Shown here: one piece after another, positions 8,248 to 63,061 of the stretch
How positions within the stretch are numbered: position 1 is the first letter of the stretch
Layout: the number at the start of each line of letters is the position of its first letter
Source: Macrostomum hystrix
Taxonomy: Eukaryota; Animalia; Platyhelminthes
Assembly: GCA_950097015.1 (NCBI GenBank)
Contig: CATNEN010000039.1
Location: forward strand, 15,748,001 to 15,812,000
Direction of reading: 5' to 3'
Length of the DNA stretch: 64,000 nucleotides
Made by a program: the position numbers and the translations under genes
Notes under the pieces: generated by a model
The model's database searches: none
What the model was told of the DNA's origin: nothing
What the model saw: the letters and a program-made list of their open reading frames with translations, nothing else

Positions 8248-9080
8248 TCAACAACAAAACCAAATAAACTGTGCAAGCAGCATCGTTAGCAGCGTCGTGC
8301 AGCCGAGCACCACGGATACGAACAGCCAATTTTGGTGCGAAGCATCCACAGCAGTCGGGGTTGCAGGCGGAGTGTACAATGGGATACAATCAGATTTTTC
8401 TGCGTTTGGTCTACATTCGTAGCGTTTGTGCTTAGAAAGTTCTTTTACATAAGTCATTAAAGATTCAAGCGATTTTTCACAGCCGATGACGGTTTTATAA
8501 TGCCATTGAGGTACAGGCCTTTTAGCAACCATTTTAAAGCACTTTTCTGATGGAGGGCAAAAAATTTCATAGGGACCTTTCACTTCTTCTCTTTGAGGCT
8601 CATTGTCATTCGGCAGCAATTTATAGTAGTCAAGGCATGGTACCAGATCACGTTCTAGATCATTGGTCAAGTTAAATACACTCGCTTTATTGCATTTATG
8701 ACCCGTGCAGTCTTTGCAATATTTTGTAGCAGGACAGGCGCCGCAACCATATTTCAGTCCCTAAAAAAGTTTCCGCATAGGGCAAAATTTATAGGGCAAA
8801 CTGTTGCTTTATGATTTCGAATTGATATGCTAGTTAAACTAGTTTAATTCATTTGGTCGCTCACCATTTCGTCGGTATTGGCAGTTGAACCTTCAGGTTG
8901 ATAATCCACGTAACACTTGGTGTCTTTGGCAGGAGTACAATCTGTATCAGTATCGTCATTCTTTTATACAGAAAATTTTACTCTTCTATTTTTCGACGAG
9001 ATACATTTTATACAATCAGCCAGCTGAATGCCTCCAAGTGCAAGAAACACGCAAACAATAACCAGCTTCATAGTCGTCAT
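8248..9080 (-). pseudogene. Tandem three-finger protein, copy 2, anchored form with a premature stop; exons 9080-8865 and 8760-8248
   Basis: Same exon structure (intron 8864-8761). Codon 39 is TAA (8966-8964) where copy 5 has TAT; the rest is open, ending IPLYTPPATPTAVDASHQNWLFVSVVLGCTTLLTMLLAQFIWFCC. Confidence 0.8.
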
Positions 9081-9403
9081 GATTGCCAGCTTCGATTCCG
9101 AATAGCCCAGTTAGATTTGGTCGATTAGCTGGCAGGTGGCAGTTGAATAGCTGATCAGGTTTGCAACGGCTGAGTAGAATCGGCCAGAATGCTTAGTCGA
9201 GTGTTGTCAGTTGTTGGATTTGATTTTTCGTTTCGGGCCGCTGCCCCTTCAATATGCTGCAGAAAATGCAGATCCGAGCCGGCTCGGTCTATAGCAGCGC
9301 TGGCTGACACAGGGGTGCCCGCCTTTTGTCTATGGCAAATTTCAGCTCTACTTTGCTTTTTTCATGCACGACTTTTCTGAGATGAACATTTGTGTTGTAC
9401 TAT

Positions 9404-11748
9404 TGATGTGGAGTGTGCTACGGGAATCGAGTGGGAATGTGAGCCAGCAGAATTTTTCAAATTTTAAGCAGTTAATAATCGCGACCCATCTAGCAGCTGG
9501 CCGCGAAGCAAGATCATTAATCTTAGGGCCGGGTTTGGGGCGGCGGTGAATTAAGTAGCCGTCGAATCCCCTCTCCCTGGATCTGTTCTAGCCCCCTGTA
9601 GGAATGACTGATCGCGGGCCATAACTTTATTGCATGAGCTAGTTTAGGTCATAATTCCCCTCCAAACCGCGATCAGATATTGGGAATCACTCGGGCATTA
9701 TGAGTGATCATTAATTCTTCATGTCCCCACTTCTTTACAGTATTCGAGCCCAGCTCGACTTTATGACCTCCTCTCTTAGATACATGTAAATGTCACTGTA
9801 GGCAGGTCGGCGCCTGCGCTTCCCATTGTCCTGGCGGAGTAACAATTATTGGCCGACTGCCGGCGGCTGCTCGTAAAGGAGCATCTGTCGTTTCTCGCCG
9901 CCGGTTCATTGGGTAATCGGGGTGGCCATCGCCGCTTCGATTCCTAGATGACAGGCTGGCGCGGATGTGGGTTATTTTGATGAATGTCGAGGTTGGCGTG
10001 CTGCAGGACTATTTAAGAAAGCGCGCTGCGCCGCCCCCAGTCACCCGCCGACCTCGGCCCAGAGACCTAACCGGCTTGCGGACCCGTCTTCCCCGACGGG
10101 CCTTCCGGACTTATCTCCCCGACTTAGGGCTTAGACCCCAGAGCTTTAAGCTCATCTAGCGCTCACAGGCTCATTGCCTGTCTATAAGCTCCTAATAGTA
10201 CAAGCCACCTCTTTAGGTGAGCTCTCGAATTGAGCCACTGAGCTCCACCGGTGTGTTGGCCCCTGCCAGCTCACACTTAGCCTTCCCCTCCTCTGTCCTT
10301 GCTGATCTTGCCCTGCCCCTCCCTCGAGAACTACAGAACTGCAGCACGCGATCGGCTTTCAGATAAGTAACCCGCGTAGCGGTCGTTTAATTGTTGCTCC
10401 TAAGGGATTATTCTGCTAGTTAGGCGGCACAATAGCGGGAACGGGCATTGGGGACTTTTAGCCTAATAAACTTTCAGCACTAGCCATTTAATTATACGTT
10501 AGGCCAAATTTTAATTACAACTTAAATCCTTTCACCTAGTGTTTGCCTCTATGTATATTTTCTCTACTAGACAGCCCTCAGCTATGAGTGGCTAATCTTC
10601 TAGGGGGTGGGCTCTGGTGAGGCCGAGATGAAGGCTGCGGCAGGAAGGCAACTGTACGCGCGCATGAGAGTAATAAGAAGCTAGGGATTCGCGGGCAGAT
10701 GCGGAGCGCAGCATGTGCATCTCTGCCGGGGTGTGGGGGATTCCTTGGCGGGTTTTCCTCTCTTCCTGGCGGGTCAAAGGGTACGTGTCAAACTCCCTTG
10801 CCAATGGAGTTCCCCTTCTTTTCCCCCTCCTCTCGCAACTGCGGCCACGGGAGCGAGAGTGATGACCTAATAATCTTTCGCTTGCATAATCACTCAGCCA
10901 GTTGTTCTGCTTAATCTCTCCAGCCTCTGATCTCCTCAACTCGCACAGATTCGGATTTGTTGGTTACTTAATGTGTAGGCTGCAGTCTAATGTATAGAAT
11001 GTGTCTGATGTCTTAAGAGTAGGATTCCGGCTATGGATTCTCATTCGAGTTCTGAGTACCACCTTTCTAGACCCCTGTAGCGCGAATTCAGGAATCCCCT
11101 TTGAGGCGTGTCTCGATCCATTCTGGGGCTCTCACCCCAGTCTAAAACGGAAGTTGCAGAATGCCCTATTTTTTCGGCTTGTCTAGATCTGCGTGATAAA
11201 CTAGGATCTGTGTACTCCGGGGACCCAAGTTCCCAAATGTCTGCGGTGGCAACGTAGGCGCATTGGGTGGTGGCGCTACCCTAGATCATATACCCGCTTT
11301 GCCGATAGCCTTTCCGCAGTTCTGTGACAAGAGCCTGGGCCGTTTCGACCACCGCTACCAAGGTTAGGAGTCAGTTGCGCACGTGCTACTGACGACAGTA
11401 GGCTGTCTAGCCCTGTCCTGTCCGATTCCGGGTAGTCCGACACCTCTCCTTAGACTTTTAGCCGGTTTCGAGCACTGCTTGGGGTAGGCACGGCAGTCAT
11501 GCCTGTGGCCTATGGGACGAGTGGGACTGGCCAGCCTGAGGCCGATAGGACCACTCCCTGCATCTACTGAACCTCCTCGTCTCTCCCTTCATCTCCTCTC
11601 TCTCCCCGCGACATCTCGCGAGTAGCTAGGCGGACTTTTGAACGACTCTGTCGCCCGCCTCTAGCAGTCATTGATCATGAGGGCAGGTCAGCGGTTGCAA
11701 AACACCCAAACCATGTCAGGATGATTTTCTCCATGACAACCCATTTCA
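9404..11748. mobile_element. Solo LTR (~2.35 kb), Gypsy-like, with 4-bp TSD CTAT
   Basis: TG...CA ends; CTAT at 9400-9403 and 11749-11752; the empty site GTTGTACTATTAGAAA is present in the paralogous upstream regions (3183, 38529, 45331); inverted homologue at 28813-31132. Confidence 0.85.
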
Positions 11749-12281
11749 CTATTAGAAATCTTTCTAGCTTATTGGAGTTTCTCTCTAACAAAGAAGCATT
11801 GAACTTTACAAGCATCGAATGAATGTTTCCCATGGGCCCATATTTGACAGACTCTTTAGACAGAGCCAGGTTAACGAAAGCTAGTGACTTTTCTTCAATC
11901 ACATCAAATCGTTCTTTCTCAGATTCCTCCGCACCTCAGATCCCGCATCCTATGCCACGGATCCCATATCCCAGAAATACATCCAATATGGGATACAGCT
12001 GATCCTACATCCGAGATCCTATATCTCATTCGACAGACCTCAGATCCCAAATCGCAGATCCTGAATCGCACATTCCGAATCGTGATTGAAAAAGCACTTT
12101 TAAGTTCCAATCAACCCGAATAATAATAGAGAGCGGAGGGACAGGATTTTGAAGTGTCTGGGTGGGGTCTCACAATGAGTCATGCTCATGGGATTGTCTA
12201 TACACTGTCCTTAACACCACTTTGCAAAACGATGCTGCGGAAGCAACGACTGACAAGACTGAAGAGGCACAAAGAAAAGTC

Positions 12282-12665
12282 TTGGGTGTCTAACAGTATT
12301 GGGTGTCTAACAGTATTGGGTGTCTAACAGTATTGGGTGTCTAACAGTATTGGGTGTCTAACAGTATTGGGTGTCTAACAGTATTGGGTGTCTAACAGTA
12401 TTGGGTGTCTAACAGTATTGGGTGTCTAACAGTATTGGGTGTCTAACAGTATTGGGTGTCTAACAGTATTGGGTGTCTAACAGTATTGGGTGTCTAACAG
12501 TATTGGGTGTCTAACAGTATTGGGTGTCTAACAGTATTGGGTGTCTAACAGTATTGGGTGTCTAACAGTATTGGATGTCTAACAGTATTGGGTATCTAAC
12601 AGTATTGGGTGTTTAACAGTATTGGATGTCTAACAGTATTGGATGTCTAACAGTATTGGGTGTCC
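12282..12665. repeat. 17-bp minisatellite (GGGTGTCTAACAGTATT)n
   Basis: About 22 head-to-tail units with no spacers. Confidence 0.97.
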
Positions 12666-15300: not shown

Positions 15301-15309
15301 GCATTGATT

Positions 15310-16172
15310 CAGTAGCTATTCCACACCGCGGTCGGCGCGGCGCTCGAGCAGCGGGTCGGAGGCGCCTGGCAGCCGCTCGCTTTCTTCAGCCGCTGTCCCG
15401 CTGCACGGTCTCCTCGGTGCGGCCCCGGCTGCTCCCCGGCGTGGACTTCGCGGCGATGGTGCAAGCGCAGGCAGCGGACCCGGCCGTCCTGGCCGATGCC
15501 AGCCTCCAGCTCGAGCCCCTGCAGCTCAGCCCCGGTGTCGCCCTGCTCTGCGACATCTCGACCGGCCGGCCGCGGCCGCTGGTGCCGCCAGACTTCCGCC
15601 GCGCCGCTTTCGACGCCATCCACGGCCTCGCGCACCCGTCGGTTCGCAGCACGCGGCGCCTCGTGGCCGCCAAGTTCGTGTGGGTCGGCATGAACCGGGA
15701 CGTCAGCAGGTGGGCCCGCGTCTGCGTCGCCTGCCAGACGGCCAAGGTGCACCGCCACGTCGCCGCCCCGGTGGACAACATTCGCGTGCCAGACCAGCGC
15801 TTCGCATACGTGCACGTCGACCTAGTGGGGCCGCTAGCGCCGTCGCAGGGTTTCACGCACCTGCTGACCATCGTGGACCGCTTCACCCGCTGGCCGGAGG
15901 CGATCCCGATGACCGATACGTCCGCCGCCGCCTGCGCCGCCGCCTTCATCGCTCATTGGATCGCCCGGTTTGGCGTGCCGAGCGACATCACCTCGGACCG
16001 CGGTCCCCAGTTCACCTCGCAGCTGTGGTCCAACGTCTCCCAGCTCCTCGGCATGCAGCTGCACCGGACCACGGCTTTCCATCCGCAGGCGAACGGGCTG
16101 GTAGAGCGGTTCCACCGGCAGCTGAAGGCCGCCCTCATGGCGAGGCTGGCAGCGCCGGCCTGGGTCAGCGAG
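15310..16172 (+). mobile_element. Ty3/Gypsy integrase fragment, 5' part (continues at 23078-23375)
   Basis: HHCC motif (HGLAHPS...CVAC), VHVDLVGPL, SDRGPQFTS, FHPQANGLVERFHRQLK; reading frame ...AWVSE|LQWVLLGIRT is split by the Bel/Pao insertion. Confidence 0.9.
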
Positions 16173-19100
16173 TGTCGCGGAAATCATTATTGTTAAACTG
16201 TTATCTATCTATTATCGATTTTTCCCCGTGTCCCTTTCCATATTGACCCCCCTCCAGTCTAGCTTCTGCACCCACCTTGTTTTCTCTCCCTCTACGCACG
16301 TTATTGTATGTTAACCCCAATGTACATCCACCCAGGGTTTCGTACCCTCTTTTGTCTCTCCTCACTGTCGGCCCCAATTCCTTCCTTGCATATCGAAATA
16401 TAATATAGTTAGAGGCCCGGGGCAAGGCCTTTGTCGGTCGTTCACATTTCTAGCCCGTTCAAATCAATACCATTAGTTAACCTCATTTTCTTAACATGGC
16501 GCCCGATGAAATTGAACTTTTGTGAATTTTACGTGCATATCGACTGTGTTAGTCGCATTCGTCTTTCGCCATATCGGACTCGTTGGCGCTAGTGTCTCGA
16601 ATATCATTAGCGTCAGTTTCGACTCGTATCTAGTATATGCCAGCCTATCTTTAGTGAACCCGTTTTCACTTGAGCTGGTTGCTTCGTTAGAATTCTGCTC
16701 GCACTAGGACTCAGCTTCGTCGGCCCGATTTCGGAGTTCTCTGGTCTACTGGTCAACTCTCGTCAGCAGCAGTAAGGTTCTCGGATCCGTAGTCACGTCT
16801 CGTTCTCGGTGGATCGGGTGACCGGCTGTCTCATTCTTTCGTGTCGCCAGGGTGCTCAAAAGCGGTCCGACTGTAATCAACGCGTCCTAAGCTAAGCAAA
16901 ATTTCGTGCCATTCTGCTATACTAATTCTCTAATTGCTCGTTTTCCACTTTGTTTTGTTTTCGCTGAACGCTATCCCCAATTATTGTTATCAAAAAATTT
17001 CGGTTGTTCTGGGTCCATTGCGCTCCCTCCTTGGCTCACTCATTGTTGCTACCCGTTGCTGGTCGCGTTTCCGTTCCTGATGTCGTCTCAGATGAAGAAG
17101 AGGTCAGTTATTCGTGCAGCAGTCACTCGGACTATCAATAGAGCCGAGAAAATCTTGAGTTTGGAATCTCTGGATGCGGAGGCAAAGGCTGATGCGGAAG
17201 CATACATAGACTTACTCGAGAACAAGCTGGAAGCTCTGGAAGAGGCTGACGCATTAGTTCAGGAAGAGCTGGCGGAAGATAAGATGGAAGCTGAGCTTGA
17301 AGAAAGTTATGAATATTCGTTTCGTGGTCGCAAGTATATCAAACTCTTAGGAAGCATTTTAGCATCAACTGTGAAATCGCATTCGCCGGATGCTCCTTCG
17401 CAATCTGAGCATAGCGCTCAACCTCAGGCTCAGGCCCTTCCTCAGGTCAAACTTCCTAAGCGTGAACTGCCCACATTCAACGGCACAATCGCTGGTTGGC
17501 AACCCTTTTGGGATCAATTCTCTTCTTCTGTGGATTCAAATTCGTCCCTCGCTGAGGTTGACAAGTTTAATTATCTGCTTGCATCTCTTTCCGAATCGGC
17601 AAAGGCTTGCATTCGGGGTCTCGCTGTGACTGGTGCCAATTATCAGGCTGCTATCGAGATTCTCACAGGTCGCTTTGGCAAGCCAGATCTCATCATTAGA
17701 GACCTCATGCACCAGCTTTCCGAACGGACACTTCTCTGTCCAGCCTTCAACGATTTCACGACGATGTTTCGGCTGCTGTCCGCAGCCTAGAAGCTCGAGG
17801 CGTGAATCCGACCTCTTATGAGAGTCTGTTGCTGCCGAACTTGCTCAAGCGATGTCCCGACGAGTTTAGACTGGAGCTTCTTAAATCAGCGAATCAAGCA
17901 GGTGCGGATTGTGATTCCATCAAAGAGTTCTTGCGTCTTCTGAGTGCGGACATTGAGGTTCGCGAGAAGGCTGCCGTCATTGGCAAAAGGTCAGGTCAAG
18001 ATCGGGATCGGCTTGCCAGCCTGCCAAAGCCTTCGCTTTCTACCTTAGCAGTCCAATCCGGCCCGAAGGATTTCTCGAGGGGGTCTGCGGGACAGGTGTA
18101 CTGCACCTACTGCGGGTTAGGGCACAGGTCCGAAGCGTGCAACAAGTTTGCCACGGTTGCTAGTCGCCGCGCCCGCCTGCAACAAGAGAATCGCTGTTTT
18201 CGCTGCTTGCGCACGGGACATGGGCTTCGCATGTGCAATGATTCACGGAAATGCAGAAACTGCGGAGGAGCTCATCACGTGAGCATTTGCGTCCCTGCAA
18301 CTCATACACCTAAAACTAGCGGTCAGCACATACATGTAGCTCAAAATGAAGGCGGGAAAAAGGGGAAAAGACCTATGTCACGTGACCAGTGTCTACCGAC
18401 CTCCGCCGAGCAGACAGATGCCACACTTCAAAAACAGTCTACGTCTACGCTCAACAACTCGAACCCAGCGTCAGCTGCTGGTTCCTCGGTCACTGTGTGT
18501 GCCACACGAGATGATCGGAAATTGTCGGGTTCACCGACGATCTCTTCAAACCATTTTACAGCGACAATGTTTGTCAGTAGTAATCCATCAGTTGCCCTTC
18601 CCGTTGCCAAGGCTATTCTGCTTAGCCCTGACGGTCAACGAGAGCTTCTAGTTCGGGTTCTGTTGGACACGGCTAGCAATAGGTCATACATTAGGGAAGA
18701 TGTGTGTGAGCTCTTAGGCATCGAGTCCGCCACAACTGAATCATTGACGGTATCGACCTTCACAGGTATCAAGGCTACAATTGCATCAGGTAGCGTCTCA
18801 ATCTCAATTCGAAAAATTGATTTGCACCAGGTTCTGAAATTGCGTGCTAATGTTGTCAAAGAGATCTGCCAGCCTCAGCGCTCAGTCTTAGTGAACGAAT
18901 TCCCTCACCTGCAAGGCTTGGACTTAGCGGATCCGTACGACCCGCGTGATGCAAGCACACCGATCTCGATCCTAATTGGCGCTGATCACTACTACGATAT
19001 TGTCGGTGGTGAAGTCGTTCGTGGGCGTGATGGACCAGCAGCTGTGTCGTCCAAGCTGGGATTCGTTCTCTGTGGACCAGTGAAACTTGGAGACACATTG

Positions 19101-22100
19101 TCTAGTCGCTCCAGTAGTGCCACGCTTGAAGGCCAGCTCAACGCAACTCAAGCTCTATGCTGCTCTGCTGCTGATCCGCTTGTCATACGAAAAACGCATG
19201 AGTGTGAACTCTCAGACTTCTGGAGACTCGACACGCTTGGTATCCTAGGAACTCAGCATGAATCGTCAGTCGATGCATTTGCCTGTGAACCTCAGCTGGT
19301 CAATGGACGCTATGAAGTCAAACTTCCGTGGAAGCTGCCGCAAGAGTCTCGATCGCTGAAAGATCACTTCGACATGGCATACAAACGCCTGAGCTCGTCG
19401 GTGCGTGCTCTTTCCCGGAATCCCGACATCGTCGAGAAAGCGAACCAGATCATTAGAGAACAGGAGGCGAGTGGCATTATTGAGAAAGTTCCTGGCACAG
19501 ATCTGCAGGAGTCCGTCGACTGTCACTATCTACCACACAGTTGTGTGACTAAGATGGACAGTGAAAACACGAAGTTGCGGATTGTCTTCGATGGCTCTGC
19601 ACGTGCTGGTCACGGAGATTTCTCCATTAATGACCACCTTCAAGTGGGCCCGACCGACCTTCCCAGAATTCCAGCGATTCTTATTCGCTTTCGCCGCAAT
19701 CCAGTTGCTGTTCTGGGAGATATTGAGAAGGCCTTCCTTCAAATCTCTATTCATGCTAGCGAACGTGACAAGCTGAGATTCTTATGGCCTGATCCTGATA
19801 ATGAACAGCAAATTTTGCATTATCGGTTCTGTCGTCTGCCTTTTGGCTTGACATGCTCACCAGGTATTCTGAGAACGACCATTCTACATCTAGTTGACAC
19901 GCACGTGTCCGTCTTTCCGCAGTATGCTCAAATCATTTGACAAGACCTCTACGTCGACAACTTAGTGACCAGTTGTAAGTCTGAGGCTGAGGCTCTCGAC
20001 CTCTACAGTGCAGTCAAACGTCTGTTTGGCCTAGCAGACATGAACATGCGACAGTGGATGTCGAATTCTGACATTTTCAACCAAGCACTGCCTGCTCAGG
20101 ATGTTGGTCACGCTGCCAAAGTCTTAGGTATTCAGTGGCACGCAGACCGAGATGCGTTCACCTTGGAATTTCGCGAGTTGGCGAGTCAAACAGAGAGACC
20201 CTCTTCAAAACGCAACATGCTTCGCCTACTCGCGACTGTGTATGACCCAATCGGCATTCTGGCACCCGCCGTGATTATTGCAAAGGTGTTACTGCAGCAG
20301 TTGTGCATCCGGAAAGTCGAGTGGGATGACAATCTTCCGCTGGATATTGATCAGGCCTGGACATCGTGGCTAAAGTCCTGGTCCAACAGCGTTTTTGAGG
20401 TCCCTCGCTACATTTTCAGGCGTTAGATTCCTTTCCAAGCAACATCGAACTTCACGGCTTCTGCGATGCAAGTGAGACAGCCTTTGCTGCATGCATCTAT
20501 GCCCGCGCCAAATCTGAATCTGGCGGTATCTCTACGACGCTGCTCTTGGCAAAATCGCGTGTCGCTCCACTTTCGAATCTGTCCATTGCTCGGTTGGAGT
20601 TACTGGGTGCACTCATCTTAGCACGCCTCATGCATCTCGCGTCACAGCAATTTCCTGACGCTGCTCGCTTCTTGTGGACAGACAGTTTAACTGCGCTGTT
20701 TAACCCCTCTGCTGAGCGCACAGATCTTCCAGCACCCGTTCGCGAAGCCGTTGAAGTCGAATCTGCTAAGGTGCTTAGTGTGACAGCTTCCGACACAGAG
20801 CATTCGGATAGCGTGGCTCTTGACCCACTGGGTTATGGCATCTCAACGCTTCTGGAGATCAAGCGTTTCTCTTCATTCAACAGGTTGCTCCGCGTGACAT
20901 CATGGGTCAGGCGGTTCATCTTTAACATGCGTGCTTCCGTGACGAGTTTGCCACTGCTCCAATCTACGTTTCTAACGGCAGCTGAGCTGAACGAAAGCGA
21001 AGTCTTGTGGCTTGGCGCAACTCAGAGGGCGGCCTTCGAAAAGGAGTTCAACCATTTACTTGGAAAGACAGCGACCACACCGCTTAACAGAGATCTGAAC
21101 CTGTTCGTTGACAGCAACGGCCTGCTTCGTTCCCAAGGCTGCATTGGTGAAGTGTTCTCATTTCAAACCAATAATCCCATTCTGATCCCACGGCACAGTC
21201 GTCTCGAGCAGCTCGTTATTGAGCGAGCTCATCGGTCTGTCGCACATGGGGGAGTGGCGGCTACGCTATGCAAAATCCGAGAGAAGTTCTGGATACTCAA
21301 AGGCCGTCAGAGGGTGAAGCAGGAGCTTTCGCATTGTGTTGTATGCCGGAAGATGCAAGGTCGCGCTTACTCAGTGCCTGTTATTCCCCAATTGCCGCAG
21401 TTTCGGTTGTCAGATGTACGTTCCTTCCAGACGGTCGGTCTCGACTATTTTGGTCCGATTTTATATCGGACGGGGGAGGGTGATGGCGCTAGCCAGCTGC
21501 TGTCTAAGGCGTACGTCTTACTTTTTACGTGCTCATCCTCTCGAGCAGTGCACCTAGAGCTTCTGCCAGACCTGTCGACTCAGCAGCTTTTGCACGGACT
21601 TCGACGTTTCGTAGCGCGTCGAGGCATTCCTTCCTTAATTAGCGATAATGCGAAGACTTTCCGGTCTGCTGCACGAATCCTCGGTGCAAGCACTAGTGAG
21701 CAAGTGCAATCTTTCTGCGCTGAGCAACGAATTGTCCCGAGTGCAACGAGTTTATTCCCGAGAAGGCCCCTTGGTGGGGTGGATTTTGGGAACGACTCGT
21801 CGGTGTGGTGAAAAGCGCTCTGAAGAAAAGCGTCGGTCGCGCACAGCTCGGCTTCGATCAGCTGGCCACAACAACAATAGAAATAGAAGCTGTCGTCAAC
21901 AGTAGACCGCTGCTTTACGTCTCCGCAGATGACAAGAGCGAAGTCATTACACCCTCACACTTTCTGAGTGGTGTACGTCTTACTCTTGAGCCTGACAAGT
22001 ACTCTGAATTTTCGTCCGTTGTGCTGCCACTTTCGAGCCGTCTTAAATTGCTTCGAAAGGCGTTGAATTCATTTTGGGACGTCTGGCACACGTCGTATGT

Positions 22101-23077
22101 CACAGCCCTCCGGGAGAAGTCGTTAAAGGTGCAAGGTGGGGGCCCGGAGCCCAAACCTGGCGATGTTGTCGTCGTCAGCGGCGAGCTGCGCCAACCTAGG
22201 CTGTCGTGGAAGTTGGGTGTGATTGAGTCAGTCTGCAGAGGTCGGGACGGTTTCTGTCGCTCGGCTCTAGTGCGGGTAGTCAGTGGTGTAGGGGGTCGAA
22301 GGTTGGAGCGCATTAGACGACCAGTGCGGGCCTTAGTGCCACTTGAAGTCTCTGAATAGCTATTTGTTGTTTCAGTGTATGCCTTGAAGTTTCCATAATC
22401 AATGGGAAATAAACTTCAAGCAAATTTTCTTGTGCTTTGTCCATTTAAGATTGTAATTCATTCGCTTATCCAGTCTCTCATCCGTGCTTATCTCGTATTA
22501 GCGTTAAGTAATTTCGCCTTTGGTGTTGGTGTATTTATTAAAATTTCTTCACCAGTCAGCAATGGCTACTCACTCTAAACTGTTACGCATGCTTGTTACT
22601 TCGCTCGTGTTTCGCCTTGGTGTTGGTGTATTTTTCCCCATATTTTCAATCCAAAAAACCATGCTTATTCCCTTTGAACTGTCACGCCTGCTTTTGAGCA
22701 AGGTCTCGTTTTATTAAATTTTTCATGAAAAATGGTTCCCATTTTTGGGGGAGTGTCGCGGAAATCATTATTGTTAAACTGTTATCTATCTATTATCGAT
22801 TTTTCCCCGTGTCCCTTTCCATACTGACCCCCCTCCAGTCTAGCTTCTGCACCCACATTGTTTTCTCTCCCTCTACGCACGTTATTGTATGTTAACCCCA
22901 ATGTACATCCACCCAGGGTTTCGTACCCTCTTTTGTCTCTCCTCACTGTCGGCCCCAATTCCTTCCTTGCATATCGAAATATAATATAGTTAGAGGCCCG
23001 GGGCAAGGCCTTTGTCGGTCGTTCACATTTCTAGCCCGTTCAAATCAATACCATTAGTTAACCTCATTTTCTTAACA
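16173..23077 (+). mobile_element. Full-length Bel/Pao LTR retrotransposon, disabled
   Basis: 324-bp LTRs at 16173-16496 and 22754-23077 (TG..CA, 2 mismatches seen); 5-bp TSD GCGAG; PBS TGGCGCCCGA at 16497; PPT just before the 3' LTR. Confidence 0.97.
17080..22359 (+). pseudogene. Bel/Pao gag-pol polyprotein broken by frameshifts and stops
   Basis: Gag KLPKRELPTFNG..WQPFWDQF, three CCHC knuckles, protease LLDTAS, RT (DIEKAF, LPFG, in-frame TGA at 19938 before DLYVDN), RNase H (HGFCDAS, AKSRVAP), integrase (GLDYFGP, SDNA), C-terminal RRPVRALVPLE; Bel/Pao domain order. Confidence 0.9.
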
Positions 23078-23375: not shown

Positions 23376-23765
23376 GATTATTTCTGCCTATTGTTTACAA
23401 GTTAAAGTACTAGTCTGTTTCAATTGATTGTAGTTTTTCACAACTGATGATTTTTATCCATGTATCAACTAATCAATTAATCAATCAATCAAACTATTTG
23501 TTAAACATATATATTTAAACTTATATCATTTCACGCAAAATATGCACTTGTAGTCTGGCTTGTTGGTGCGCGTGCACTTAGATGTGCACGCGCGGCTTGT
23601 TTGGGGTGGGGGGTTTAGCGCTGCAGCGTGCGTTCGCTTAGGGTGGTTGCACCCACCCCAACTTTGCCGTTAAATATATTGGCGTGAGCCAGTGAGGGCT
23701 CCTGGCGTGTTTGTTATGTTCTACAACTTAACCCACGGTCTTACACTGGTGGCAGCGGTCTCACT

Positions 23766-24560
23766 ATGGCCAAATCAGAGCAAGCCAGTCTATTGCCTTC
23801 AAAGTTTAGCGGCGACTCCAACGTGAGAACGTGGCTCAGCACGTTTGAGGACTTCGCCGACGACTGCGAATGGGACGACAAGAAGAAGGCAAAGAAGCTG
23901 AGACTGCTGGTGACAGGAGAAGCACAAATCTTCGTCTGGGAGCAGCCAGAAGACGTGTCAGCCAGCTATGAAAAGCTGAAGGAGAAGCTGATCGAGTGCT
24001 TTGGCAACAGTCTAAGCTGCTACAGAGCAATGGAGGACTTTGAAGAGCGTAAGCGACAGCCTAACGAGTCGCTGAGGGAGCTGGCCTACAGCCTGAAGCT
24101 TCTCCACCTTCGGGCCCGCCCGGACGACTCCGTGGCGGCTCGGGAAAAGGACGTAAAGTTTCGCCTGATGCGCCTCCTGCCATCTGCCGTGCGAGATGCG
24201 CTGTTGAAGGACCAGGACGTGGACTCGTGTTCGCTGGCCGCCATCGTCGACAGAGCTGCGCGGCTTGAGCTGGTGAGCCACGCGACTACAGCCTCATCAG
24301 CTGCGGTGTCAGTGGAAGACAGACGGCTGAGCCAGCTGGAGCAGCAGATGCAGCAGCTGACAGCCAGCGTGCGAGCGGGACCACCCGGAAGAGACAGGCG
24401 TCAGAAGGGACCCATTAAGTGCTTCAGCTGCGGCGAGCTGGGTCACATCGCTAGGCGGTGCCCAAAGGCGACCGGCATCCGCTGCAGCCGGTGCTCAGGC
24501 AAAGGTCACTCCGCCGCGGTGTGCCCGACACCAACTGGACAGCCGCAGGGAAACTTCTGA
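23766..24560 (+). CDS. gag: Gypsy Gag with two CCHC zinc knuckles
   Basis: PSKFSGDSNVRTWL..F capsid-like start; CFSCGELGHIARRC and CSRCSGKGHSAAVC. Confidence 0.93.
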   Translation: MAKSEQASLLPSKFSGDSNVRTWLSTFEDFADDCEWDDKKKAKKLRLLVTGEAQIFVWEQPEDVSASYEKLKEKLIECFGNSLSCYRAMEDFEERKRQPNESLRELAYSLKLLHLRARPDDSVAAREKDVKFRLMRLLPSAVRDALLKDQDVDSCSLAAIVDRAARLELVSHATTASSAAVSVEDRRLSQLEQQMQQLTASVRAGPPGRDRRQKGPIKCFSCGELGHIARRCPKATGIRCSRCSGKGHSAAVCPTPTGQPQGNF

Positions 24561-24610
24561 GGGTCGGCAGCCTGGGGCCAGCACCGACCCGCTCAAAAGG
24601 GGCCCTTAGA
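24548..24610 (+). promoter_or_regulatory. Programmed -1 ribosomal frameshift signal
   Basis: G GGA AAC heptamer in gag phase, followed 6 nt later by the stem GGGTCGG/CCGACCC. Confidence 0.8.
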
Positions 24611-36360: not shown

Positions 36361-36515
36361 CCAGAATTTAAATCAATTTTTCTTTTGTCATTGATCTGAA
36401 TTGTCTACATTTTGATTTTGTTATCTTATAACGTCATAGTGATATTTGTTTGAATGATAGTAATTTTGCCTCATTAATTCAAATGTATGCTTTGTATTCA
36501 AAAGCAGCTGGAGAA

Positions 36516-45647: not shown

Positions 45648-46848
45648 CATCCTGGAGAGAAAGCCTTCAGGCAAGCTGTCCTTCAAGCAGCTAAGCACCA
45701 CATCCTAGCTAGGAAACTTCAAAATTTTCGTCCTCACTTCCCGCCGGAAGCCGACACCCTCTGCAAGCAAAGAGACCTCATTCGCACGGATAACCCGCAC
45801 GGAAGCTATCACCATCATTCAAGACGAAATCAACCAGATCTGCTCCAACTTTCGCCGGGCGAACTCGAGGGAAAAGCTTGAGCAGTTCAGCATCAAGCAC
45901 CTGGTCTCTGAACTGTGGCGAACCATCAAGAACCTCAGCGGTAAAGGCCACAAAGAAAACTCCGCTGGCATCCTTTTTGACGAGCTTCCCTTAACTGATC
46001 CCAAACGCATTGCCAAGGCCTCCAACAGGCAGTTCTTTGATCAAATTCATCCGGCCACCCCGGAAGACAGACGCCTCAAAAGGGACATGCTTTCCCCCAC
46101 CAATGGCTTCCTGCTCACGTCCAAGTGACGTCACGTCGGCCATCAAAAGCTCTTCGCCGTTCGAAGCCACCGGACCGGATGGCCTTTCCCCAATCGTCCT
46201 GAAGCATCTTGGACCAAGGGGAATTGCCTTCCTCTGCTGCCTATTCAATCTGAGCCTTACCACCAGTATATCGTTCATAGCACCTGGACATCTGCGAAGG
46301 TAGTGCCTCTTCTCAAAGGAACAAAGATGCTACCTGCAGCTCCTCCTACAGGCCAATCTCGATCCTTTCTCCAGCCGCCAAATTGCTGGAAAATTGCCTG
46401 CTGTCCACCTTTCAGAGCGCACTCCCGCTCCCTACCTGGCAGCATGGCTTCCGCGCGGGGCACTCCACCGCCACCGCCCTTACCAGCCTCACCAGCTCCA
46501 TCAGCAACGGCCTTAGCCAACCTAAACCTGCTGAGAGGACTCTGCTCATCGCACTCGATCTGCAAAAAGCGTTCGACAAAGTCAATCACGCCAAGCTCCT
46601 CCGGATGCTCTTCAACTCCAGCCTGCCGAAATGCCTCACCAGGTGGCTCAGTGCGTACCTGTGCGGTCGGAGCACGAGAGTCCTCTTCCGCGGCTCGCTC
46701 TCCTCGGCCAGGCGTCTCAGAGCGGGCGTGCCTCAGGGAGGAGTTCTGTCCGCGCTCCTCTTTGCCTACTACATGAGCGACATCCCGGCTCCTCCTGGCC
46801 AGATCCAGCTGACTCAATACGCTGACGACCTCACAGTCTGCACGAGAG
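45648..46848 (+). mobile_element. Decayed LINE (I/Jockey-like) RT fragment
   Basis: ATGPDGLSP..LKHL, QHGFRAGHST, ALDLQKAFDKVNH, GVPQGGVLS, QYADDL; truncated where the copy-5 upstream sequence starts. Confidence 0.88.
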
Positions 46849-47084: not shown

Positions 47085-47945
47085 ATGACGACTATGAAGC
47101 TAGTTATTGTTTGCGTGTTTCTTGCACTTGGAGGCATCCAGCTGGCTGATTGTATTAAATTTATCTCGTCGAAAAATGGAAGAGTAAAATTCTCTGTATA
47201 TAAGAATGACGATACTGATACAGATTGTAGTCCTGCCAACGTCACCAAGTGTTACGTGAATTATCAACCTGAAGGTTCAACCGTCAATACTGACGAAGTG
47301 GTGAGCGACCGAATGAATAAAACTAATTTAATTAGCATATCAATTCGAAATCATAAAGCAACAGTTCGCCCTATAAATTTCGCCCTATGCGGAAACTTTT
47401 TTTAGAAACTGAAATATGGTTGCGGGGCCTGTCCTGCTACAAATTATTGCAAAGACTGCACGGGTGATAAATGCAATAAAGCGAGTGTATTTAACTTGAT
47501 CAATGATCTAGAACGTGATCTGGTACAATGCATTTCCTACGTGAAACGAGATATAGTTCCACAGCCGGGACATTTCTCTGAAAATTTTTGCCCTCCATCA
47601 GAAAAGTGCATTAAACTGATTTCTAAATCTAATTACCTCACTGAAACCTATATCAACTGTGAACATTACGAGTATGTCAACGATAAATATAAATGCAACC
47701 AAGAATACTCCTCACCGTCGCATTTTGTGGAGTTTGAACACTACGAATGTACAAAAAACGCAGTAAACTCTAATTGTAGCGAATTACTAATGCGTGCAAC
47801 CACGACTGCTGCGGGTACAACCACGACTGGTGCTTGGCACCCGATTATGCTGTTCGTATTCGTACTGCTTGGCTGCACGATGCTGATAGCGATTCTGATT
47901 GCCCTGTTTATTTGGTGCCATTATAATTTTTTTGTTTTTCTTTGA
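47085..47945 (+). CDS. Tandem three-finger protein, copy 5, anchored form, 251 aa; exons 47085-47300 and 47406-47945
   Basis: Signal peptide; intron 47301-47405 (GTGAGC...TTTTAG); KLKYGCGACPATNYCKDCTGDKCN; most divergent second domain; hydrophobic tail; first Cys replaced by Phe (IKF). Confidence 0.85.
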
Positions 47946-57600: not shown

Positions 57601-59750
57601 CTAGTTGGGATGAGTGAGCCAGTAATGACCAAGAGGAAGCCGAGCGTAAGCGAGGCTTTCTCTTGGTCATTACGGATGCGATATCTCATCTTGATAAGAC
57701 GTAGCCAACGTGTCGGGATAGAAAAGCACGTTTTTCAACTTTTAACGATTGCCGCTTTTGCCCAGTTGAACCGATTTGGATGCGTTTTTTGCAAAACATG
57801 TAAAATACTCGGGTCTATGCACTGATGTGAAAATCGTTGCCATGGCAACGCGTTTTGGTTGCCATGGCAACCAAAAACATGATTTTTTGGACGTGACGAA
57901 AAATGGTCTTTGGCCGCTTAAGCCGGCATTTTATGGTATCGCCAAGTGGCTCTATCCAGTCGATGCGGGCTATAGAAGCCTACAATGATTTGATATGGAT
58001 TTTTTCTTGCTGACCCATCTTTTGGGTCAAAGGGTCAAAAACAGGTTTTTGAGGTTGAAAAAATGTGCATGTTTTTAAACTTTCTCACCACGAGATCGTA
58101 ACCCTAACACATAGGCCTACTTGATGGTGGAGAATTTTTTTGACCGTGTGCTTTTGTGATTGAAATAAATGTGCACTTTTAAAGTACTTTTAGTACAGGG
58201 TGCACTTTGGACGCCTCTATGACACAGACATGTGACTTGAATCGCATTTCAACACATGTCAACCAACTTTCTTGGGTGTCGCCTATACGAAAATGTTGGT
58301 TTCAGACTGATTGAATGTTGTTTACCGAAGATGTGGGTAATTAAATCCTAAAAACGTGATTTTGGTCATTTTTAGTCATTTTTCGAGGTACAAAACTGCA
58401 TGGCCAGAACGTATTTGGTGTGTGATTCGAATGCGGCTTCAGTTTTTAGAAGCGCAACAGATGTGCGCACAAAGTGTATATTTAGAATTTTTTTATCATC
58501 CACTTGTCCCGGAGGTGGATGCGAAAATCCCAAATTTTGACCCCCCGGGGAGCTAAAACATTCAAAACAGGATCAGTCATAACTTTTGATTACTGCATCC
58601 GTTGGTGTTGCGCTTACCGTTGCTGAATTGCATTTAAGACCCTCTTTCATTTGATACTAGACTCGTGTACACACATTCAGTAGTTGGCCATCTGTACTAA
58701 GATATGTACCTGTACAGGTGTACGTAAGAGAGAAAAAGTTTGCCATTTCCGCCCCTACGATAGTGCACTTTGTAGTATTGAACTGCAAATGGTGTCAATA
58801 GACGCATGTGGATGTTTGAAAGAGAATGACATGTCAACTTAAAGTCAGAGTCACATTCAAGATGCTAAAGCTTGATTTGCAGTTGGAAAACGTGTTATTT
58901 TCGTAGAAATTAACAAAAATCATGCATTTTTTCGAACCTATAAAGGTAAATTTTGTAAAAACGGTCTTGCGATTTTTTTTATGTACAGAGACGAATTGTA
59001 CCTAACACTATGCTGCATCTGATGAGCAGCTGCATTAGTGTTGAAAAATTCGATTTTTCGAAATGGAAGGCACATTGCAGCAATTTTGACACCCGGGCCT
59101 ATGCCAATTTCTCATAAGATTACTCATAAGATTTTAGTAGTGCGATTTCTCGAATCAAGTTTGGTGTCGTTGGATAGCATTTAGAGCCCTCTTCAAAAGG
59201 AAAGCATCCATGCCTGTCTGTAAAAATTGATTGAGCGACAGTACACGATGCAGTACTTTTAGGAGAAGCTGCATTTTCGAGTTTACTCAAATGAAATGTT
59301 GTTCTTTGCTCCAATGTCATTGAAAATGGTTTAAATTGATGCGTCTAGATGTTTCCAAGACAATGACATGTCACTTAAAGCTGTGCATCACATTTCAGAT
59401 GTACAGTATTGATTTTCATTTATAAAATGTGATTTTTTTTCATGCACACAAATAATGCAACCTTGAGTGAAAATTGTGCTAAAATGGATAAGTAATCGCA
59501 TCGCATGTATGTTAGTTTCGCATTTAAATTGTGTGCCCAGCATTGAAATGATTATGTTGCTTTAGTCTTGGAAAGTTTAATTATCTGATGAAGTATGAAT
59601 GTGAAGTAAGCAGTAATTAATGAAAGATCATCCTGTTTTTGCGATCAACTTTTTTGCATCACATGAAAATTGAAACCGAAATTTTATTAGTTGAAGGCTT
59701 GAAGGTTCACTTAAAGTACACAGGCTACAGCTCTCCATGCATTTGTCAGT
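57601..59750 (-). mobile_element. Second Helitron-like repeat (far end approximate)
   Basis: Hairpin GTAATGACCAAGAG...CTCTTGGTCATTAC next to a terminal CTAG followed by T on the minus strand; homologous to 50695 onward. Confidence 0.5.
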
Positions 59751-59754
59751 GTTT

Positions 59755-61630
59755 TTTGTGGCCTTCGCCGAGTTCTTCGCCGCCATAGTCAACGCGCCGC
59801 CACCCCCGCTGCCCAACATCCTGACGCTGCCGCCAGAGACGCCGTTGCCGTCAGAGGACAGTTTTAACGTTGCACCAGTCACCATGGCTGAAGTCTTAAT
59901 GCTCGCCCAGAAGACGCCGGGCGGCAAGGCGCTGGGTCCGGACGAGGTGCCCATCGAGGCGCTGCGCATCCACTGTGTGGCCAGTGAGGTCGCCCGTGTG
60001 ATGAACCGCGTGCTCTCCGGTGAGGTGGCACCCACTGAGTGGACCATGGCGCACATCATCGCCATTCCAAAGAAGCCGGGCACTACGCGGCTAGACGAGC
60101 ACCGAGGCATCTGCCTGCAATCCTGTGCTGCGAAGTTGTTCAACCGGATGCTGCTATCGCGGTTGCAACCCGTGCTGGATCCCTACCTGCGACCTGAGCA
60201 GAACGGGTTTCGGCCCCACCGTGGCACAGTGACGCAGATCCTAGCTCTTCGCCGAATCATCGAGGAGGCGCGCACGCGCCAGTTGGACCTGATCGTTGTC
60301 TTCATTGACTTCATGAAGGCTTTCGACTCGGTTGCGAGGGCTGCGCTCCCACATGTGCTCCGCGCGTACCATGTGCCAGAACAGCTGATCTCCGCCATCA
60401 TGGCGTTGTACTGTGCTACGAGAGCAGCTGTGATGACGCCGGACGGCCTGTCGGACCCCTTCGAGACATCCTCCGGGGTGCTCCAGGGGGACACTCTAGC
60501 GCCGTTCCTGTTCGTCCTGGTGCTTGACTGGGTGCTACGAACTGCTCTTCCTACCGACGAAGACGGCTTCCTACTGCGGCGACGCGTGGGTCGACGTCAA
60601 CCGGAGAAGCGGCTCAGCGTGCTTGGCTACGCCGATGACCTCGCCCTGCTGTCCTCGACCGTAGAGGACGCCCAGCGCCAGCTGGATAAGCTGGTTAGCG
60701 CTGCAGCGAGCGTCGGCCTGTTGGTCAACACGAAGAAGACCGTTGTGCTCTGCGTGCCGGGCGACATCGAGGCCGCAATTTTCTGCCGAAGCGCTGACGG
60801 GCAGGTAACGGAGCTTCCGCGCTGTCAACAGTTCGTCTACCTCGGCGGTCTGGTACCTGACGTCCGCGAAGATCTGAGGCGTCGCCGCCGGTACGCTTGG
60901 GCTGCCTTTCGTTCTGTGAGGGCGGTCCTGCAGTCCGAGGCCCTACCTGATCGCCAGAGGGCGGCGCTGTTCCAGGCGGTGGTCGAGACCGTCCTGTTGT
61001 ACAACGCCGAGACGTGGACGCTGACTGATTCGCTAGAACAGCAAGTCAACGCGGCGCACGCTGGCCTGCTGCGTGCCGCCTTTAAGATCAGCGACGAGCG
61101 GATCACTAACGCGGCACTCTATCGTCGCGCCGGCCTGGCCCGTCCGAGTGAACTGCTGCGACTTCGGCGACTCCAGCTTGCAGGCCACATCATCCGCGCC
61201 GAGTCCTACTGCCCGCAGCCGGTGCAGGAGGTGCTGCTGCTAACGCTGCAGGCACCCTACCGGCGCGGCCAGGCCCGAACTCGGCGTTTCGTCGACTGCC
61301 TGCTGGCCGATGCTGGCGCCCCGGACACTGCCGGCGGTGCGGCCTTTGTTCGCGCCCAGGCTCTGAAGCGTGCACTGTGACGCTGCCTTTTCCACCTGAC
61401 AGCGTACTTTGTTGTTGTTGTTGTTTTTGTGGGGACGAGATTTCTGACTATTGAGGTTTGAGTGTACATTAGCTGGGGCCAAGCTGTGCTGTGCCGCCCG
61501 ATCGATAAAAATCTAAGGGGAGGGGGGTTCTCTCAGCCTGAGTGTCTGTGGCTTAAATGGGGCTATAGCGGGCCAGCCCCTCCCTTTTGTTTAATGTAAA
61601 TGGCCCGGCTCAGTTTATCTTATCTCTCTC
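59755..61630 (+). mobile_element. 5'-truncated RTE-clade LINE with an open RT ORF (59737-61380)
   Basis: KALGPDEVP, QNGFRPHR, FIDFMKAFDSV, GVLQGDTLAPFLF, YADD, YLG, VLLYNAETWTL, LAGHIIR; 3' UTR runs to about TTATCTTATC where the copy-6 flank homology resumes. Confidence 0.9.
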
Positions 61631-62069
61631 GTGTTTGTGGATGGTGTAGGGACTCTAGTTGAACTTCCTCAATCTGTCTCATTGTGACTCTTTGTCGCTT
61701 ACCCTCCTTTTCTTTGTTGTCTTTGTCCCTTCCTCTTCGTTTCGCTGCTGCTTTCGCCAAGTTTGTGCCTCTTTCGTGCCTCTTTGTTCGTGCTTTGGGG
61801 GCACAAAATGACTACTTTCAGACATCAAGCCAGGTTTAACTGATCATTGTGCAGCTTGCGTGGAGTGTTAAAAAATAAGCACAGAAATATATAAATTTTG
61901 TTATAAAATATTACAAGCCTGGCATGCTTGAGATATGCAACGGAAATCGGTCAGTTTTTTTATTGAGAGGAGACTTTTAGCGCCTTGATTTTTACAGCAC
62001 ATTTTCAGACAGAACTTCAATACATCCAATACATCAAAACATGAAAAGAATATTCACAAGAAAAAAAAG

Positions 62070-63061
62070 TCAAAAACAAAAAGAACCGCGCCAAATAAAC
62101 AGCGCAAGCAGAATCGCTAGCAGCATCGTGCAGCCCAGCAGTACGGAAACGAGCCGCAAACTCTGGTGCCAAGCACCCGCAGCAGTCGGGGCTGCACCCG
62201 CAGCAGTCGGGGCTGCACCCGCGACAGTCCTGGCTGCACCCGCAGCAGTCATGGTTGCACCCGCAGCAGTCGTGGTTGCACCCGCAGCAGTCGTGGTTGC
62301 ACCTGCGGCAGTCCTGGCTGCACCCTCAGCAGCCGTGTTTGCAGGCGGAGGGAACATTCTTAATTTGCTACAATTAGACTTCGCTGCGTTTGGTCTACAT
62401 TCGTAGCGTTCAAACTCATGTTGGTTCTTGACCACTTGATAAAAACTGTTGATCGAGATTTCACAGCCGATAAAGGTATTAATTCGCCTAACGTTTCGCT
62501 CTTTAGAAACCATTTTAAGGCACTTTTCTGATGGAGGACAAAAAATTTCAAATGGACCTAGCACGTCTTCGCGTTGAGACTCATTGTCATTCGTCAGCAA
62601 TTTCGCGTAAAGAAGGCATGGTACCAGATCACGTTCTAGATCATTGATCAAGCTAAATACACTCGCTTTATTGCAGTTATCACCCGTACAGTCTTTGCAA
62701 TATTTTGTAGCAGGACAGGCGCCGCAATCATATTTCAGTCGCTAAAAAAGTTTCCGCATAGGGCAAAATTTATAGGGAAAACTGTTGCTTTATGATTTTG
62801 AATTGATATGCAAATTAAATTAGTTTAATTCATTTGGTCGCTCACCACTTCGTCAGTATTGGCAGTTGAACCTTCAGGTTGATAATCCACGTAACACTTG
62901 GTGTCTTTGGCAGGAGTACAATCTGTAGCAGTATCGTCATTCTTATATTTATAAAATGATACTTTTTTATTTTTCGACCAGACACATTTTATACAATCAG
63001 CCAGCTGAATGTTTTCAAGTGCAAGAAACACGCAAACAATAACCAGCTTCATAGCCGTCAT
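62070..63061 (-). CDS. Tandem three-finger protein, copy 6, anchored form with a long repeat stalk, 295 aa; exons 63061-62846 and 62741-62070
   Basis: Signal peptide; intron 62845-62742; RLKYDCGACPATKYCKDCTGDNCN; stalk of 7-aa AAGA(T/A)xT repeats; hydrophobic tail. Confidence 0.88.

Follow-up and report, generated by a model that had tools for sequence, protein, structure and literature searches.

In vertebrate recognition families such as MHC, KIR and Ly49, a conserved framework carries polymorphic patches that are shuffled when short tracts undergo ectopic conversion between tandem paralogues. The same mode of conversion, on a different fold and in a different phylum, is considered here for six paralogues (c1–c6) of one small two-exon gene, which were identified by tblastn and six-way DNA alignment in a 64-kb stretch of the genome of the flatworm Macrostomum hystrix (assembly GCA_950097015.1, contig CATNEN010000039.1, positions 15,748,001 to 15,812,000 of the forward strand). 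This whole stretch of 64,000 nucleotides is called the window, and all coordinates below are counted from its first letter. The copies encode two cysteine-rich domains of a predicted three-finger type, whose loop variants occur in conflicting combinations. These combinations most likely arose through repeated germline ectopic gene conversion, in which the copies and probably also family members outside the window took part; the mosaics are placed in the germline because they are present in assembled genomic DNA.

Snake three-finger toxin genes likewise form a multigene family on a three-finger scaffold (PMC2474615, PMC2711939), a scaffold that in the present family is predicted. The first report describes introns and a signal region that are very similar between genes, and short exon segments that have been swapped for distinct ones, changing the exposed loops (PMC2474615), and the flatworm genes are alike in this. 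They differ in having two domains, a membrane tail in most copies, one phase-0 intron, a flatworm host and no known venom context. Sequence homology to snake three-finger toxins was not found in a Pfam scan, a word-index search or a profile search. Exchange in the flatworm genes is backed by formal recombination tests and by a neutral clock in the flanks of a duplication.

The Sp185/333 (SpTransformer) genes of sea urchins (PMC3091723, PMC5103432) are small, tightly clustered two-exon genes with short tandem repeats and segmental duplications around them, and the members are mosaics of shared blocks; the flatworm locus is similar in each of these respects. The Sp185/333 proteins are characterized there as immune-induced effectors, whereas the present family is known from genes and contigs and has no homology to Sp185/333. 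Closer in phylum is Sm29/SmLy6D of Schistosoma mansoni, a surface protein that has a signal peptide, a site predicted for a glycosylphosphatidylinositol (GPI) anchor and a pair of uPAR/Ly6 domains and that was missed by sequence until PSI-BLAST and modelling were used; the relevant part of that report treats it as a single gene, unique in its family in having two domains, and does not describe a tandem mosaic array (PMC4492491). Sequence similarity between Sm29 and the present family was not detected, the profile search having given no relative. No description of such a family in Macrostomum was found in the open-access literature. The evolutionary mode is already known; new are a family without detectable relatives, its flatworm host and a clean internal control.

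Gene copies

All six copies contain a phase-0 intron of 104–105 nt (GTGAGC...TTTTTTAG). Exon 1 codes for the signal peptide and most of the first cysteine-rich domain, and exon 2 for the end of domain 1 (...C-x4-C-N), the linker KASVFNL.NDLERDLV and the second cysteine-rich domain; c2, c4, c5 and c6 add a Thr/Ala/Pro stalk and a terminal hydrophobic stretch, and c1 and c3 end directly after domain 2. On the minus strand lie c1 (2142–2869; exon 1 2666–2869, intron 2562–2665, exon 2 2142–2561), which ends in ...SDCVTVISEISLN and a stop codon without a hydrophobic tail and is predicted to be a secreted form; c2 (8248–9080; exon 1 8865–9080, intron 8761–8864, exon 2 8248–8760), with a C-terminal hydrophobic tail; c3 (37524–38215; exon 1 38012–38215, exon 2 37524–37907), which ends in ...SDCVTVISD and a stop codon without a tail and has a first domain-2 loop that is largely its own; c4 (44160–45007; exon 1 44786–45007, intron 44682–44785, exon 2 44160–44681), with the ENIQL variant of the signal, a hydrophobic tail and a loop 3 of its own (KGPTGFYSQHE); and c6 (62070–63061; exon 1 62846–63061, exon 2 62070–62741), in which the stalk preceding the hydrophobic tail is expanded by Thr/Ala-rich repeats. 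The sole plus-strand copy is c5 (47085–47945; exon 1 47085–47300, exon 2 47406–47945), head-to-head with c4. The initial annotation had placed the family at 8248–63061, a range that takes in five copies and leaves c1 outside. The c6 stalk (62150–62330) carries a repeat of about 7 residues (TAAGATT-like) and is about 50 residues longer than the stalks of c2, c4 and c5. At a linker codon (alignment column 517) an NLT sequon is present in c1–c3 and NLI in c4–c6, a split that crosses the duplication pairs described below.

Divergence within a segmental duplication

A young tandem segmental duplication was delimited by self-BLAST and global alignment. Block A (1678–9404, with c1 and c2) pairs with block B (37063–45341, with c3 and c4), so that c1 is the partner of c3 and c2 the partner of c4. 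Outside the gene bodies the blocks differed at 88 of 6150 aligned sites (1.43%). Within the four exons the count was 134 of 1324 (10.1%; Fisher p=3e-47 versus the flanks), a seven-fold excess inside one and the same duplication, and within the two introns 10 of 208 (4.8%; p=9e-4). Silent sites were shifted with respect to the neutral flanks as well: synonymous differences between partners stood at 9–11%, with 13.7/121.8 for c2–c4 (p=3e-9 versus background) and 10.5/114.5 for c1–c3 (p=6e-6). As synonymous sites are also raised, the excess is not limited to amino-acid-changing sites, which selection on the protein alone would not predict. This contrast within the duplication is the strongest evidence for conversion.

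The 81 differences between c2 and c4 comprised 36 in which both states were present in other copies, 34 private to c4, 10 private to c2 and 1 shared by neither; the 61 differences between c1 and c3 comprised 21 with both states shared, 22 private to c3, 16 private to c1 and 2 shared by neither. Those c2/c4 differences whose states were shared with other copies were contiguous. Alignment columns 142–229 include 13 of 13 of this kind, c2 agreeing with c5 (or with c1, c3 and c5) and c4 with c6 (or with c1, c3 and c6), and in 8 of the 13 the state was held by c2 and c5 alone. Together with an indel common to c4 and c6, this pattern requires that exon 1 by itself has undergone two or more exchanges after the duplication, the c2 lineage exchanging with that of c5 and the c4 lineage with that of c6, in either direction.

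The blocks also differ in large insertions. A stretch of about 518 bp in block B (40220–40736) is missing from block A, and a 2.3-kb insert (9405–11747) splits the upstream flank of c2, which resumes at 11748–12160 (97% identical to 3187–3599); an inverted copy of this insert, 84% identical, lies at 28813–31146.

Loop variants and shared tracts

The initial annotation had proposed that loop variants assort independently among the copies. Conflicting groups were indeed recovered across the six copies, and every motif listed there was found in the translations of the copies to which it had been assigned: ISSKN.RVKFSV in c2 and c5; VWSKNKKVSFY, with the ENIQL signal, in c4 and c6; CTPAKDTKC in c2, c4 and c6; NVTKC in c1, c3 and c5; QPEGST.NTDE in c2, c5 and c6; TGHKCN in c2 and c4 as opposed to TGDNCN in c1, c3 and c6 (c5 has TGDKCN); and, in domain 2, YYKLLPN, KMVAK, WH.KT, SLESLMT.VK and ELSKH in c1 and c2 and not in c3.

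Differences were counted for each domain-1 loop. Loop 1 differed at 1/47 between c4 and c6, 2/47 between c1 and c3 and 4/47 between c2 and c5, in contrast to 9/47 between the duplication partners c2 and c4. For loop 2 the counts were 0/47 (c4–c6), 1/47 (c2–c4) and 1/47 (c2–c6), and for loop 3 they were 2/49 (c2–c6) and 3/49 (c5–c6), in contrast to 11/49 plus 6 gap columns for c2–c4.

Exchanged tracts were sought with a GENECONV-like (Sawyer-type) run test, in which the two longest runs were taken for each of the 15 pairs (30 fragments). A global P<0.05 was reached by 4 of the 30: c4–c6 at 113–205 of the alignment (P=0.005), c5–c6 at 296–324 (0.009), c2–c6 at 232–301 (0.029) and c2–c3 at 731–777 (0.029). 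The c4–c6 tract (44898–45090, minus strand, shared with 62952–63044 of c6 and sequence upstream) has 21 concordant polymorphic sites and holds a 10-bp insertion in the 5′ untranslated region (UTR) that is absent from c2, the ENIQL variant and loop 1; the partner c2 differs all along it. In c2, a tract from loop 2 to loop 3 (8875–8944, minus strand) is shared with c6 (62856–62925; 17 concordant sites), and a tract in domain 2 (8436–8464, minus strand) is shared with c3 (37589–37611; 17 concordant sites). The loop-1 tract of c2 (8964–9002, minus strand) is shared with c5 (47163–47201), in keeping with the loop-1 counts given above.

Recombination tests on the alignment

Of the 697 ungapped columns, 186 were polymorphic and 81 informative; among pairs of informative sites, 37% were incompatible. 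The pairwise homoplasy index (PHI) was 0.2405 for the six copies against a permuted mean of 0.3748 (p=0.0005); significance was retained from the flank to the linker (p=0.0002), in exon 1 alone (0.010), without c5 (0.0002) and with c1–c4 only (0.0024). A 3SEQ-like test was run on 120 ordered triplets, of which the best 25 of 120 lay at the floor of 1/4001, below the Bonferroni threshold of 0.00042.

Trees were compared segment by segment, as the initial annotation had suggested, and they differed among segments. For the signal and loop-1 segment the tree expected from the duplication was rejected by the approximately unbiased (AU) test (0.0018) and the Shimodaira–Hasegawa (SH) test (0.004), and 5 of the 6 other alternatives were rejected too; the loop-2 tree was not rejected there (AU 0.086). 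In the loop-2 segment the AU test rejected the loop-1 tree (0.035) as well as that of the duplication (0.011). Only the two domain-2 trees were rejected in the loop-3 segment, and for the intron and linker segment none of the candidate trees was rejected at 0.05. For exon 1, a single tree was rejected by the AU tests; one tree fitting every segment was the outcome that would have contradicted the initial annotation.

Histories of gene segments

A conserved 5′ flank, comprising the promoter and the 5′UTR (at c1, 2870–3190, minus strand), precedes all six copies, and over 235–331 aligned nt its divergence was 1–4% in 15 of 15 pairs, c5 included. About 700 bp from the promoter to the inter-domain linker were 95–99% identical in all copies. 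In the 3′ flank, divergence was 3.4% between c2 and c4, about 7.5% between c2 or c4 and c6, and about 35% between c5 and the rest. The synonymous divergence dS was 0–0.08 in the end of domain 1 and the linker and 0.24–0.68 in domain 2, except for c1–c2 (0.085). From the other copies, c5 differs by 2–3% in its 5′ half and by about 35% in domain 2 and the 3′ flank; it is therefore a chimera in which an old 3′ half is joined to a family-typical 5′ half. The region comprising the 5′ flank, signal, intron and linker behaves like a tract that has been homogenized. Codons of invariant residues varied synonymously at 7 of 25 in domain 2 versus 6 of 64 in the 5′ half, a contrast that is suggestive of homogenization of the 5′ half and is not decisive for the invariant FCPPSEKC block of domain 2. 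That block had been considered as a nucleotide-level recombination signal, and this was dropped with one synonymous variant found in it.

In domain 2 the initial annotation had likened c1 to its neighbour c2 rather than to its duplicate c3. The distances agree: the first loop showed 9/77 differences for c1–c2 versus 23/74 for c1–c3, and the middle portion 6/72 versus 12/72. Only five sites, however, are shared by c1 and c2 alone; most of the contrast comes from changes private to c3, and the grouping (c1,c3) was not rejected (AU p=0.23). A recent conversion of c1 domain 2 by c2 was accordingly dropped for weak evidence. Two regions, the first domain-2 loop of c3 and loop 3 of c4 together with its third domain-2 loop, may each represent either a patch from a copy outside the window or rapid change.

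Weighing of the conversion account

Several results count against an account by conversion alone. Many of the differences are copy-private, and a donor for them is not visible in the window; the background rate predicts about 11 new differences over 797 columns, and 45 private c2/c4 differences were observed, to which localized rapid substitution may contribute. A private burst of change in one 'parent' can mimic the signal of the triplet test. Within domain 2 alone PHI was not significant (p=0.24; 0.32 without c5), and AU tests on either domain-2 segment rejected 0 of 8 candidate trees at 0.05, power being limited by six sequences and short segments. The shared-site patterns fit either direction for every conversion event.

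These points are in part those that would be expected if no recombination had occurred, the loops having changed by fast point substitution and small indels (under diversifying selection or a raised local mutation rate), with the remainder constrained and the sharing of states due to ancestry and chance. The large private blocks (loop 3 of c4, the first domain-2 loop of c3) and the lack of spatially structured incompatibility in domain 2 fit such a history, and so do ratios of nonsynonymous to synonymous divergence (dN/dS) of about 1–3.6 in the domain-1 loops (3.57 for c2–c4, 3.19 for c2–c6), values that are not individually significant and are confounded by conversion. It would leave unexplained why 36 of 81 c2/c4 differences have both states elsewhere, lie contiguously and conflict with the history of the duplication, why c4 and c6 have a 10-bp indel in common, why synonymous and intron divergence is 3- to 8-fold above that of the flanks and why the two halves of c5 differ so strongly from each other in their distance to other copies; PHI, the GENECONV-like test and AU all favour recombination. 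Fast substitution probably contributes and cannot be the whole account, and a history wholly free of recombination is considered unlikely.

The account retained as best is one of germline ectopic gene conversion, or of unequal exchange, involving both tandem and inverted paralogues. Strand invasion would rely on homology in the near-identical 700 bp or so between promoter and linker, loop-coding patches would pass from copy to copy in short tracts (those visible measure about 30–250 bp), and the same process would homogenize the 5′ flank, signal peptide, intron and linker, while selection or drift would maintain the differences between loops; extra donor input from copies outside the window is likely. 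As for the initial annotation, its general claim of recombination or gene conversion among the paralogues is borne out: a number of independent tests support it, as does the contrast with the duplication flanks. Its description of 'mosaics of shared loop cassettes' is fair for domain 1 and for the 5′ half as against the 3′ half of the gene, and too broad for the many private differences. The further proposal that recombination takes place within the framework blocks is not an independent finding: invariant blocks carry no markers, so breakpoints can only be placed there. The data lend no support to somatic shuffling or to a role in immunity or as antigens.

Transcripts and integrity of the assembly

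No sequencing run was on record as RNA; runs were classed as RNA-like where cover was restricted to gene bodies and intron-skipping joints were present. Four runs of one study covered c4 and c5 on the gene bodies only, with no cover on 45124–46586 and almost none up to 46852, and their contigs contained an intron-skipping joint at c4 (44680→44786) as well as joints fusing a c3-like loop 3 to exon 2. At c2, a joint 8759→8864 was present in runs X2, X8 and X11 (104 nt; CT..AC on the plus strand, equivalent to GT..AG on the gene strand), and in X11 a poly-T loose end before 8103 marked the c2 poly(A) site, placing the end of this minus-strand transcript near 8103. Run X1 covered all 30 of 30 bins of the c1–c2 region, like genomic DNA. 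Run X2, labelled 'DNA?', had cover in 14 of 30 bins of 2050–9170 at a depth of up to 289,020, high only on or beside the two genes; with its gene-limited cover and skipped intron it behaves as cDNA, and the gene family was among the most abundant sequences in it.

Loose ends identical to the 3′ ends of c1 and c3 were found in RNA-like contigs (c1-like ends at 44292), so transcripts of the tail-less forms are colinear with the genome. A 5′UTR of about 121 nt is suggested by adapter-tagged contig ends at 2990 (c1) and 46964 (c5). RNA-like contigs also held variants that are not encoded in the window, such as another version of loop 3 between 44680 and 44820, and unsampled family members or alleles must therefore exist. 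In c2 an in-frame TAA is present at 8964–8966 (codon 39), where the five other copies have TAT. Spliced c2-like contigs are present despite it, and contigs extend over it at 8936–8985 with 1 mismatch and at 8948–9026 with 2 (mismatch positions unlisted); this TAA may be real, strain-specific or an assembly error.

RNA-like contigs of another study tiled c2 exon 1 at 97–100% identity. One of them, 51 nt in length, matched 8905–8955 with 0 mismatches and runs from the last part of loop 1 through loop 2 into the beginning of loop 3, and a spliced contig links c2 loop 3 to exon 2. Such contigs bear on the reading that the patchwork is an artefact of assembly, in which the duplication would consist of haplotypes or homeologues placed in series, or paralogues would have been mis-joined or mis-polished within identical blocks. 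Macrostomum genomes are rich in repeats, the long identical blocks of the family are hard to assemble, and X1, the only run covering intergenic DNA, may come from the source sample; yet the window contains no N, the insertions described above (518 bp at 40220–40736, 2.3 kb at 9405–11747) are specific to one block each, the c2 loop combination and exon junction are matched at 97–100% by contigs of a different study, and c1-like and c3-like 3′ ends both occur in contigs. Even if the blocks were allelic, the patches shared with c5 and c6 would need recombination between paralogues. The contig matches and block insertions argue against a chimeric assembly and are no proof of the tandem arrangement; an artefact is regarded as improbable, more so than a history of substitution alone.

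Somatic diversification, by which loop cassettes would also be shuffled in body cells, as has been put forward for certain invertebrate immune genes, and the germline mosaics would be a by-product of that active mechanism, is the least credible reading and very improbable: 1642 contigs (≥97% identity) lie on the gene bodies in X2, but no more than 6 sites carry a variant at a tenth of the depth or above and depths >100,000 are expected to yield error contigs, the mosaics sit in genomic DNA, contigs drop rare variants and so cannot be used to judge somatic variation, and no elements resembling recombination signals and no dedicated enzymes turned up in the window, in which no search was aimed at them.

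Predicted fold

Exon-1 and exon-2 translations were searched separately with hmmscan against Pfam at E≤10, domain 1 thus never being whole, and 0 of 4 queries matched the clan of UPAR_LY6, Toxin_TOLIP, QVR and Activin_recp. With c4 exon 2 as query, nothing at E≤0.001 was retrieved from 5.8 billion proteins by word-index search. The sole match of a profile search among 1.84 billion representatives (E=2.6e-4) was a translated tandem repeat with absurd matches to multiple Pfam families and was discarded as spurious.

The published definition of the Ly6/uPAR (LU) domain gives ten plesiotypic cysteines within 60–90 residues, bonded 1–5, 2–3, 4–6, 7–8 and 9–10, and an Asn directly after the last cysteine; typical LU genes are said there to have a separate signal exon, two exons per LU domain and phase-1 introns (PMC6600238). 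In the present family domain 1 has 9 cysteines (8 in c5) and domain 2 has 6 (7 in c5). The pattern in domain 1 is C-x2-C...C-x7-C...C-x2-C-x6-C-x2-C-x4-C; this domain has the opening C-x-x-C known from LU domains (CIKC; CIKF in c5) and their closing C-x4-C-N in 6 of 6 copies (TGHKCN, TGDNCN or TGDKCN), and domain 2 closes in all 6 copies with SDC or SNC and then I, V or S, without the terminal Asn. Sp185/333 proteins are not known to be cysteine-rich. In c5 the second domain-1 cysteine is missing and domain 2 has one more. The ectodomain keeps the total of 15 found in the other copies, a hint of a disulfide that lies between the domains or is compensating. The gene structure also departs from the LU type, with one phase-0 intron inside domain 1, the signal and the first part of domain 1 in one exon and an uninterrupted domain 2. 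LU proteins are secreted, GPI-anchored or held by a C-terminal membrane helix (PMC13719153). The present products agree with this: an N-terminal hydrophobic signal was present in 6 of 6 copies, and a C-terminal hydrophobic stretch of about 20 residues, with 0–9 residues after it, in c2, c4, c5 and c6. The tail of these four copies is predicted from sequence to be a GPI signal or a membrane helix, and c1 and c3 are predicted to be secreted.

Structure prediction with AlphaFold was of modest confidence, with a predicted local distance difference test score (pLDDT) of 65 for exon 2 and, for domain 2 alone, a mean pLDDT of 71.4 and a predicted template modelling score (pTM) of 0.59. The best matches of the domain-2 model among 48,161 chains compared by VIA-align were SLURP-2 (Z 4.6; 69 of 76 aligned at a root mean square deviation (rmsd) of 3.4) and a short alpha-neurotoxin (Z 4.6; 60 of 61 at an rmsd of 3.2); among the 50 matches listed, all with Z <5, 25 were three-finger/LU or TGF-beta-receptor ectodomains by their entry titles. 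The only domain-level matches of the exon-2 model were three-finger proteins. Neither model had a match at E≤0.001 when compared with the PDB by Foldseek. By language-model features, exon 2 was nearest to clusters of the LU-type clan (0.77–0.83), which serves as a lead only. Taken together, the weak structural matches and the arrangement of cysteines make it somewhat probable that the products consist of two LU-type (Ly6/uPAR, three-finger) domains; the evidence is a lead and not proof, and the family is termed three-finger-like rather than filed as a confirmed LU member. From the architecture alone, the variable fingers are predicted to be the binding surfaces that contact a partner, on secreted and membrane-attached binders.

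Surrounding DNA

The window is rich in transposons, with long open reading frames (ORFs) of BEL/Pao-, gypsy- and long interspersed nuclear element (LINE)-type elements and many tandem arrays, and has no N. Between the duplicated blocks, a BEL/Pao-like and a gypsy-like long terminal repeat (LTR) retrotransposon lie side by side (16170–23077 and 23549–28497) and are apparently young: the 327-bp LTRs of the former are 99.4% identical, and the 198-bp LTRs of the latter are 100% identical, with long intact ORFs. A search with the BEL/Pao ORF gave distant, uninformative matches only. An intact LINE reverse transcriptase is found at 59737–61377, its best named relatives being Macrostomum lignano UniRef entries (for example 78% identity over 94% of the query, and 90–91% over 36–43%); taken by itself, this match points to a Macrostomum-like flatworm as the likely host. 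The same 17-bp minisatellite, 90–93% alike, lies upstream of c2 (12275–12664) and of c6 (63455–63658), and such minisatellite-flanked units recall the Sp185/333 clusters. Long tandem arrays are present around the gene copies at 319–1548, 31476–32009, 34855–36375 and 36510–37084, with periods of about 123, 84 and 69 bp.

Significance for the organism

With flanks that have diverged by 1.4%, the locus offers a rare opportunity to set the rate of conversion-driven change in its exons against that of neutral change within one stretch of DNA; its value lies in a new family with an internal control and not in a new mechanism. A wider interpretation is speculative and considered improbable as it stands: the locus would be an actively diversifying germline repertoire of two-domain three-finger binders, surface-bound or secreted, in a free-living flatworm, in which loop patches are reshuffled by conversion at about seven times the pace of neutral change and which serves the recognition of variable partners (microbes, mates or gametes, non-self tissue). 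Conversion-shuffled tandem families on a fixed scaffold underlie several recognition systems. If the interpretation is true, the family would be a lophotrochozoan counterpart, on an LU scaffold, of diversity of the Sp185/333, FREP or MHC type, and might extend to somatic variation. With transcripts that are very abundant in at least one data set, it is a candidate for recognition or secretory biology in a laboratory-tractable group of animals.

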